A stretch of DNA of 64,000 nucleotides from Octopus vulgaris (lineage: Eukaryota): assembly GCA_951406725.2 (NCBI GenBank), contig OX597839.1:19158001-19222000 (forward strand), in the 5' to 3' direction. Every line of letters begins with the position of its first letter. The first letter of the stretch is position 1. Position numbers and translations under genes: made by a program. Below the pieces are notes generated by a model, which had not been told where the DNA came from, searched no databases, and saw nothing but the letters and a program-made list of their open reading frames with translations. Below are positions 28,910 to 59,066 of this stretch, piece after piece.

Positions 28910-28948
28910 GTATTGATGTTGAAGCTGCCGCCTTTGTATTAACAGTGG

Positions 28949-29030
28949 TTAGGGTTAGGGTGTTAGGGTTAGGGTGTTAGGGTTAGGGTGTTAGGGTTAG
29001 GGTGTTAGGGTTAGGGTGTTAGGGTTAGGG
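28949..29030 (+). repeat. Interstitial telomere-like array (TTAGGGTTAGGGTG)5 + TTAGGGTTAGGG
   Basis: 12 TTAGGG units in a strict 14-bp period. Confidence 0.92.
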
Positions 29031-29389
29031 ATTTAGTTGCAGATGTCGCTGAAATAGTCATAATTGTTTTGTTTTAACAGTAGTTGTAAGTTCGATAGTA
29101 AAATTGTAGTATTGGTGGTAGTACTGGAAGTAATAGAACTTGTAGTAGTAGATGCTGTCGTTGAAGGAGGCATATTTGTACCAATAGTAGCTGTGTGTGT
29201 AGTAGCAAAGAGGGTATACATATATATATATGTATGTATACAAAAAGCAATAAAGATTCAAGTTAATTTAAATGAATTTACTTGAATATGGTACCTAACT
29301 TAGATGCACCAAAAAAAACTATACTGTTTTAACAATACAGTAATGTGGGGTGATTATAAGCGAGAAAGAAGCAACAAGAATGGATAGGT

Positions 29390-29480
29390 TTTTAGTACAA
29401 TCGTTTCATACAAGGACAGGCTTTATTAAAAGTTGCAAAAATTACAGCATATAAACGTGTCCCGTACTCATCAGCTAAAA
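29390..29480 (-). ncRNA. Type I hammerhead ribozyme, inverted copy of 29814-29904
   Basis: Reverse complement of the plus-strand motif, in the left arm of the palindrome. Confidence 0.82.
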
Positions 29481-29813
29481 TACATGTGAGTTCTCTAGAC
29501 ATCCTAGTGGTTGAGGCTATACTCATGAGGTAATGTAGATAATTAAGTAACATAAACAGATTTCCAAAGTTCATTAAAGTTCTTTAAAGATGATGTATAG
29601 TCTTATCACAGAATTTTAAAAAAGTTTTAATAGCATCACAGAGAAGGTGACCTAATCCATAGTGCACATATGAATTAAAATTCTGTGATAAGACTATACA
29701 TCATCTTTAAAGAACTTTAATGAACTTTGGAAATCTGTTTATGTTACTTAATTATCTACATTACCTCATGAGTATAGCCTCAACCACTAGGATGTCTAGA
29801 GAACTCACATGTA

Positions 29814-29904
29814 TTTTAGCTGATGAGTACGGGACACGTTTATATGCTGTAATTTTTGCAACTTTTAATAAAGCCTGTCCTTGTATGAAACGATTGTACT
29901 AAAA
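29814..29904 (+). ncRNA. Type I hammerhead ribozyme, intact core, extended stem II
   Basis: ttttag-CTGATGA-gtacgggaca...tgtccttgtat-GAAA-cgattg-TA-ctaaaa. 6-bp stem I; predicted cut after 29898. Confidence 0.82.
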
Positions 29905-29959
29905 ACCTATCCATTCTTGTTGCTTCTTTCTCGCTTATATATGTATACATATATATAAT

Positions 29960-30160
29960 CAAAAAAAAAAAAAGAAAAGGAAAAAAACAACAACGCTGTG
30001 ACGTGGTACATGCAAAGTATTAAAAGACGCCCAGGGAAGGAAAGAGAGTGTGTTTTACGTTTCGAGCAAAGCTCTTCTTCAGAAACAGGAGATGGAGGAA
30101 AGTCCAAAAGAAAAAGAAGATGGAGGAAAAACACGCCAACAATCCACGTTAAATTGTGGA
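29960..30160 (-). mobile_element. Solo PLE pseudo-LTR/3' end, same family as 11900-12101
   Basis: Hammerhead followed by ttccctgggcg...taata and a T-rich tail; flanked by TA-rich repeats. Confidence 0.7.
30051..30087 (-). ncRNA. Minimal type I hammerhead ribozyme, intact core
   Basis: Minus strand: tgttt-CTGAAGA-a-gagc(ttt)gctc-GAAA-cg-TA-aaaca. Perfect 5-bp stem I, 4-bp stem II, palindromic ACGT stem III. Confidence 0.85.
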
Positions 30161-59002: not shown

Positions 59003-59066
59003 CCATGCTGATGAAGGCTACAGTTATCCTTGCGGATAATAATAGCCGAAACTGATCAGTACATGG
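59003..59066 (+). ncRNA. Type I hammerhead ribozyme, intact core
   Basis: ccatg-CTGATGA-a-ggcta[cag ttatcc ttgc ggataa taa]tagcc-GAAA-ctgatcag-TA-catgg. All three stems pair; stem III is the palindrome ACTGATCAGT; predicted cut after 59061. Confidence 0.9.

Follow-up and report, generated by a model that had tools for sequence, protein, structure and literature searches.

The palindrome between positions 29241 and 29939 of the analysed window (the whole stretch of 64,000 nucleotides from Octopus vulgaris) is in all likelihood (probability roughly 0.85) a 5'-truncated head-to-head insertion of a young Penelope-like element (PLE) of the Hydra clade, for which both strands of a (TA)n target were likely nicked and two cDNAs primed at two fixed sites. 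The two cDNAs were likely made on one RNA. The palindrome is likely one of hundreds in the genome, and likely an ordinary by-product of the element's insertion mode, not an RNA switch.

Boundaries and ribozyme motifs of the palindrome

The left arm (29355-29619) matches the reverse complement of the right arm (29675-29939) at all 265 of 265 bases; 55 bases separate the two. An earlier sequence-only reading had described a cassette at 29355..29939, consisting of 265-bp inverted arms and a 55-bp spacer. The arms stand, whereas the spacer and the limits do not: comparison with 30 fetched loci revealed that the "spacer" and about 114 nt to the left of the left arm are element sequence. The former continues the left arm upstream, and the latter is a tail through which this arm extends to 29241. 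With the element numbered along the minus strand from e1 at 29676, the left cDNA spans e1-e436 and the right cDNA e58-e322. They overlap by 2 nt at 29675-29676, a microhomology at the inversion junction. The features are as follows.

29233-29241, no strand: left copy of a candidate 9-bp target-site duplication; the same 9-mer lies at 29940-29948, in an interrupted (TA)n tract
29241-29354, minus strand: PLE tail, e323-e436, in the left arm only; 29241 doubles as the tail's final templated base
29355-29619, minus strand: left arm, pseudo-LTR e58-e322 of the tail-bearing cDNA
29390-29480, minus strand: type I hammerhead motif, left copy, exact mirror of the right copy; predicted cut after 29396
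29620-29676, minus strand: the former "spacer", e1-e57 of the left arm, the excess length of the left cDNA
29675-29939, plus strand: right arm, pseudo-LTR e58-e322, its tail-less end joined to (TA)n
29814-29904, plus strand: type I hammerhead motif, right copy; predicted cut after 29898
29814-29819 / 29899-29904, plus strand: right-copy stem I, 6 bp
29820-29826, plus strand: right-copy CUGAUGA
29827-29886, plus strand: right-copy stem II, 60 nt, closing pair G-U (G10.1-U11.1 wobble)
29887-29890, plus strand: right-copy GAAA
29890-29897, plus strand: right-copy stem III, a self-complementary 8-mer, 2 bp with a palindromic 4-nt loop
29896-29898, plus strand: right-copy GUA site
29940-29948, no strand: right copy of the candidate 9-bp target-site duplication

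The 9-mer of the candidate duplication occurs 19 times on both strands of the 64-kb window. Among 76 hand-picked insertions of the family, most flanks are pure TA and uninformative, some restrict any duplication to 6-12 nt, and target duplications of 13-14 nt are readable in L093, L106 and L027. The left flank of the insertion is not a high-copy repeat, and no host gene was recognised among the long open reading frames (ORFs) listed for the window. Surrounded by Thr/Ser-like triplet repeats, a telomere-like TTAGGG-variant array (28948-29030, period 14, 5.9 copies) lies 200 bp to the left of the insertion.

A fold-back artefact of sequencing or assembly is extremely improbable. The arms are 100% identical, as such an artefact would produce, and no contig among those listed from the public runs X1, X2, X3 and X5 (short contigs, with 29620-30160 covered) crosses the junction. 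However, the left and right flanks are unlike each other, each arm stops at a different family-specific site, the 9-bp duplication frames the pair, and the same architecture recurs elsewhere with diverged arms. Three analogous spacer-to-arm joints in short-read contigs, represented by one contig each, point weakly in the same direction.

An intact hammerhead on each strand had been proposed, and the motif is borne out: both arms carry CUGAUGA, GAAA, GUA and three stems, with stem II closed by G-U, not G-C. The motif has the type I features, namely a CUGANGA, GAAA and NUH core, three stems and ends in stem I. A hammerhead descriptor matched four times in the window (the two arm copies and two others) and in none of 30 dinucleotide shuffles. 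The Rfam search suggested for this motif gave no hammerhead model at the gathering score anywhere in the window; at E<=10 over 29200-30100 it gave 29 sub-threshold matches, mostly to miRNA-hairpin models and none to a hammerhead, likely because of the long stem II. Among 13 ribozyme variants, chosen out of 40 and gathered by core-like anchors, 91% of stem cells were paired, far above slid controls, a level that 30-32 of 500 shuffles also reach. The stem III pair varies among AU, GU and GC in diverged variants, and diverged subfamilies retain the ribozyme core and the stem III palindrome; single copies with a mutated core are also present.

In folding calculations, the hammerhead fold of the monomer reached -10.5 kcal/mol against a free minimum of -12.5, and that of the dimer -31.6 against -32.5, which agrees with the weak, dimer-dependent hammerheads described in PLEs (PMC4209133; PMC6765202). 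The ribozyme is a trait of the family, and in tandem transcripts of complete elements it is predicted to cleave weakly, either dimerised or assisted by protein.

Two further hammerhead motifs were observed in the window. A second, older high-copy repeat at 29959-30150 (minus strand), which abuts the same TA tract, contains a minimal hammerhead at 30051-30087 (minus strand, CUGAAGA from 30082, predicted cut after 30056). This repeat has 3,106 candidates in the genome, the best others being 88-91% identical, and likely represents another PLE family. A fourth motif lies at 59003-59066 (plus strand), in a fragment bordered by TA tracts; its CUGAUGA is at 59008, and its stem III is a perfect palindrome of 10 nt.

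A transcript in either direction does meet the antisense arm first, as had been pointed out. Folded as a whole, the cassette reaches -466 kcal/mol, about 40-fold the ribozyme-fold energy, and the entire ribozyme is paired; 139 bp of the hairpin can zip before the ribozyme emerges. The suggested self-cleavage switch between competing folds therefore finds no competition in these models: read-through RNA would not cut, which makes a switch unlikely, and with its ribozyme buried in the 265-bp hairpin the locus is most likely inert. Only RNA initiated inside the cassette would expose a ribozyme; a promoter in the pseudo-LTR is known for Drosophila Penelope (PMC2377424). The proposed use as a substrate for siRNA processing or ADAR is possible, as is conceivable for any transcribed inverted repeat.

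A parent element, probably of the Hydra clade

The proposed Penelope-like origin, with hammerheads in pseudo-LTRs and an inverted insertion, was confirmed, as both arms are 3' ends of a 4.65-kb PLE. The cassette itself is ORF-less, as described. The genome search for a parent ORF recovered a whole unit of 4,650 bp (L034) comprising a pseudo-LTR with tail, an intact 957-aa ORF with reverse transcriptase (RT) and GIY-YIG motifs, a 1.29-kb 3' region and a tail-less pseudo-LTR. In full-length copies the tail runs on into the 5' leader of the ORF. When 20 loci were selected by the 5' end of the ORF, six proved to carry ORFs 930-957 aa long that contain YRDD as well as YIGC. The family shows the anatomy of endonuclease-bearing (EN+) PLEs, with a pseudo-LTR from a partial tandem, an inverted 5'-truncated copy and a tail at one end; a one-end tail and inverted truncated copies are standard in PLEs (PMC8557442; PMC3846280).

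The 957-aa protein (P0001) has 42 relatives at E<=1e-20, which are 29-44% identical, and a partial 70% identity to an Octopus sinensis protein. YRDD lies at residue 355 and a GIY-YIG motif (VIY..YIG) is present C-terminally at 837-854. A Pfam search of P0001 gave neither an RT (RVT_1) nor a GIY-YIG domain, and since a Pfam GIY-YIG match was obtained for only one of 35 aligned relatives, which was not P0001, the nuclease assignment is at the level of motifs. A PDB profile search of the ORF returned only a retron RT (E 0.015), and an Atlas protein search only unnamed eukaryotic clusters, some with RVT_1. The structural model of P0001 (pTM 0.73) had telomerase TERT 3du5 as its best Foldseek match (E 1.6e-8) and folds well outside two Asn-rich, predicted disordered inserts at residues 488-566 and 645-811 (L034:4977-7850), which add about 250 aa. 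In the O. sinensis ankyrin-repeat protein model P0037, the N-terminal ~200 aa are 70% identical to the start of the element's ORF; either the gene prediction is chimeric or a fragment of a PLE has been exonised.

By the published motif definition (PMC8557442), the parent would be a Hydra-clade PLE with a C-terminal endonuclease, like Penelope-13_HM and Hydra-1_Obim. P0001 contains RWK at 37 and DKT at 124 with no DKG, a CxCx5C linker at 818, and CxxC..E..N..CxH at 915, the last also found in 35 of 35 relatives; a (TA)n target and a canonical hammerhead are further Hydra traits found here. The Neptune and Nematis clades were rejected on the absence of the Cx2-5CxxC linker (0 of 35 relatives) and of the CCHH motif, the latter judged by reading the nuclease core. 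The element differs from the Hydra clade as described in PMC8557442 in several dimensions: its unit is 4.65 kb, against generally <3 kb (a tendency of the clade, not a strict criterion), with Asn-rich inserts in a 957-aa ORF; stem II has 60 nt, against about 12-24 nt in the published list; and the tail has about 115-120 nt, against 30-40 bp. It is another family within a known clade, set apart from Hydra-1_Obim because the ribozyme sequence differs and the protein, compared by eye, is clearly different.

Pairs of hammerheads on opposite strands of PLEs are already published. Penelope-13_HM bears the same hammerhead on both strands owing to an attached 5'-truncated inverted copy, with G-U closing stem II and cleavage after A (PMC8557442 File S2). 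In Schistosoma mansoni, dual minimal hammerheads attributed to truncated PLEs lie about 100-700 bp apart on opposite strands and, like those of this locus, have a palindromic stem III; they show low activity and act as dimers (PMC4209133). Unlike these, the present motif combines a stem I of canonical form and 6 bp with a long stem II and a stem III of 2 bp that is capped by a 4-nt loop. The Penelopes of Adineta vaga share inverted pseudo-LTRs, an optional one-end tail, target duplications (8-10 bp) and Asn-rich inserts with this element, but have low copy numbers and a 31-bp tail and belong to a different clade by the naming of that paper (PMC3846280).

An annotation of O. vulgaris describes 31 recently active PLE families, and the word "ribozyme" occurs 0 times in the available portion of its text (PMC13282606); its annotation files may include this family. 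The literature covered yielded no publication that describes this family, counts a one-tail rule or mentions an extra G. The details that are possibly unreported are the G added without a template to most of the tail-less ends, the length of the tail, the 60-nt stem II and the weak junction excess near the cut. The locus is ordinary. The family is useful as a Hydra-clade PLE that is young and present in many copies, some of them with naturally intact ORFs, and whose ends follow a strict pattern.

Insertions across the genome and their mode of formation

The genome searched comprises 2.8 Gb in 227 contigs. An own-genome search gave 1,338 candidates, of which 40 were scored, with 44 matches at 98-100% identity, and a ribozyme 21-mer had 1,102 exact matches genome-wide. 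On the largest contig (C1), 72 matches of this 21-mer were grouped by hand into 44 clusters, all of which were fetched. Twenty-eight of these clusters are divergent pairs (minus then plus), 93 bp to ~5.5 kb apart, and none is convergent; by extrapolation from this share, roughly 400 such pairs exist genome-wide. Several hundred near-perfect hairpins would be candidate substrates for the small-RNA and RNA-editing pathways of the octopus.

Two outward ends were found at 29 of the 44 loci and a single end at 15. One end carried the tail (e436-443) and the other lacked it (e314-322) in all 30 two-ended insertions (29 on C1 and the window), and L092 has an additional tail-less arm beside its pair. 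Of 76 ends, 71 run into TA-rich DNA. The one-tail rule would fit a reaction in which each of the two target strands is primed at its own fixed site on the RNA.

The inner junctions are all different in 28 of 28 insertions (27 C1 pairs, leaving out L092, and the window), 13 of which show an overlap of 0-4 nt at the junction, and the junction 23-mer of the window's cassette occurs once in the 2.8-Gb genome. The double-ribozyme "unit" inferred in the sequence-only reading is therefore not supported. It is very improbable that the palindrome is used by the host as a dsRNA or cleavage switch, or propagates itself as a retrozyme- or MITE-like palindrome. Both ribozyme motifs are intact, the arms are perfect, 19 of the 27 C1 pairs lack ORF sequence, and five of twelve tiny palindromes described below share one junction, all of which would suit such a unit. 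However, the flanks of these five are different, the tail sits on one arm in 3 of them and on the other arm in 2, perfect arms are usual among young copies, and the energy of the hairpin far exceeds that of the ribozyme fold, in addition to the unique junctions. Non-LTR retrozymes are likewise non-coding, PLE-derived and equipped with type I hammerheads, but they are direct, head-to-tail tandem repeats (10.64898/2026.07.22.740005), whereas this locus is head-to-head with a single-copy junction.

The inferred youth of the palindrome was upheld: with 0 differences in 265 bp, its age is bounded at roughly 1.6 Myr, given no conversion and a rate of 0.0036 per site per Myr as quoted in PMC13282606. 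Across insertions, the arms differ by 0.68% within an insertion against 1.75% between insertions, and a subfamily A/T site is identical between arms in 28 of 29, suggesting that both arms came from one source or were converted; gene conversion could alternatively account for the identity of the arms. The only pair disagreeing at the subfamily site is L123 (G000:C1:222318000-222321400), whose arms differ at 9 of 254 bases and possibly derive from two different RNA templates.

In the two-primer mechanism, the C-terminal GIY-YIG nuclease would make staggered nicks 9 nt apart in (TA)n. One target end would prime at the tail site (e436-443) and the other at the tail-less site (e317-322), both of which are AU-rich, could pair with a TA primer and lie about 115-120 nt apart. 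Both cDNAs would then pass the ribozyme, still uncut, and terminate early (in this copy at e1 and e58), after which their 3' ends would be joined via the 2-nt microhomology and the site repaired. Direct observations are the parent element, its fixed ends, flanks of (TA)n, the candidate duplication and the unique junction.

A biochemical counterpart exists in the Poseidon element PAc of Anolis, whose protein nicks and extends both strands of an AT-rich target on uncut RNA, with two internal RNA start sites marking the tail (PMC11167929); for the octopus element, these properties are deduced from insertions. PAc belongs to a different clade, and its start sites fall within the ORF and reportedly lack homology to the target (PMC11167929), whereas here the sites would be about 170 and 50 nt upstream of the ATG, with TA microhomology to the target. 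By what route PLEs generate inverted repeats and tails, and which role their hammerheads play, have been stated as open questions (PMC8557442; PMC11167929).

The same element could also have formed its inverted arm by self-priming, in which the cDNA primed at the tail site bends back on itself, with a loop of 55 nt in the present copy, and serves as its own template until its TATA can anneal to the opposite target end. Self-priming has been proposed for inverted junctions of PLEs (PMC3846280), accounts for identical arms and fits about 9 of the 28 junctions, which are near-symmetric and in several cases lie at short palindromes (L087, L106, L124); the window's own copy, with its longer tail arm, is compatible with it. 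However, in 8 of the 28 insertions it is the tail-less arm that extends further 5', exceeding the tail arm by >20 nt and by up to 2 kb. The fold-back of a single cDNA cannot explain those, and a tail-less cDNA folding back cannot supply a tail. We therefore regard self-priming as unlikely and favour priming of both strands.

Extra bases and junctions near the ribozyme cut site

At e316-318, tail-bearing arms read GCT in 35 of 35 cases, whereas 39 tail-less ends read GCG in 23, GCT in 5 and other sequences in 9, with 2 unparsed. The window's tail-less end has the templated T. A C was found within 20 nt of the opposite flank at only 3 of 44 such tail-less ends, and L027 shows a target duplication plus an extra base. 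The extra G was likely made by the RT, through non-templated addition or a two-base slip on CGC; alternatively, it may be a target-derived base after a blunt cut.

Exact k-mer counts along the element were 960 (e186-205), 1,102 (e267-287), 1,048 (e284-303) and 638 (tail), with no step at the cut site. Ribozyme cleavage as the main cause of 5' truncation was rejected on this ground, and cDNAs mostly run through the ribozyme.

Twelve mini-palindromes of ~200 bp (L164-L175, e.g. G000:C2:54218276-54218320) are joined at e272-289, around the cut site, which a GTAC palindrome spans. The count of 12 compares with 5 and 4 junctions in two control windows (binomial p 0.02), with e272-289 being nearer the 3' end. 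In the five that share a junction with independent flanks, one arm passes the cut by 3-5 nt. This excess offers a weak lead, as the junctions are not exactly at the cut.

It is possible, though on balance doubtful, that these insertions record the Hydra-clade reaction in vivo, in which a protein dimer would prime both strands on one RNA at two fixed sites, write the non-templated G by a telomerase-like slip on CGC and sometimes stop at the ribozyme. If so, the stops at the ribozyme would for the first time reveal, in a genome, that a PLE hammerhead folds or cuts in vivo.

Among the larger arrangements, L064/L065 (G000:C2:37617000-37628000) form a head-to-head pair of two near-full-length copies with four ribozyme sites.
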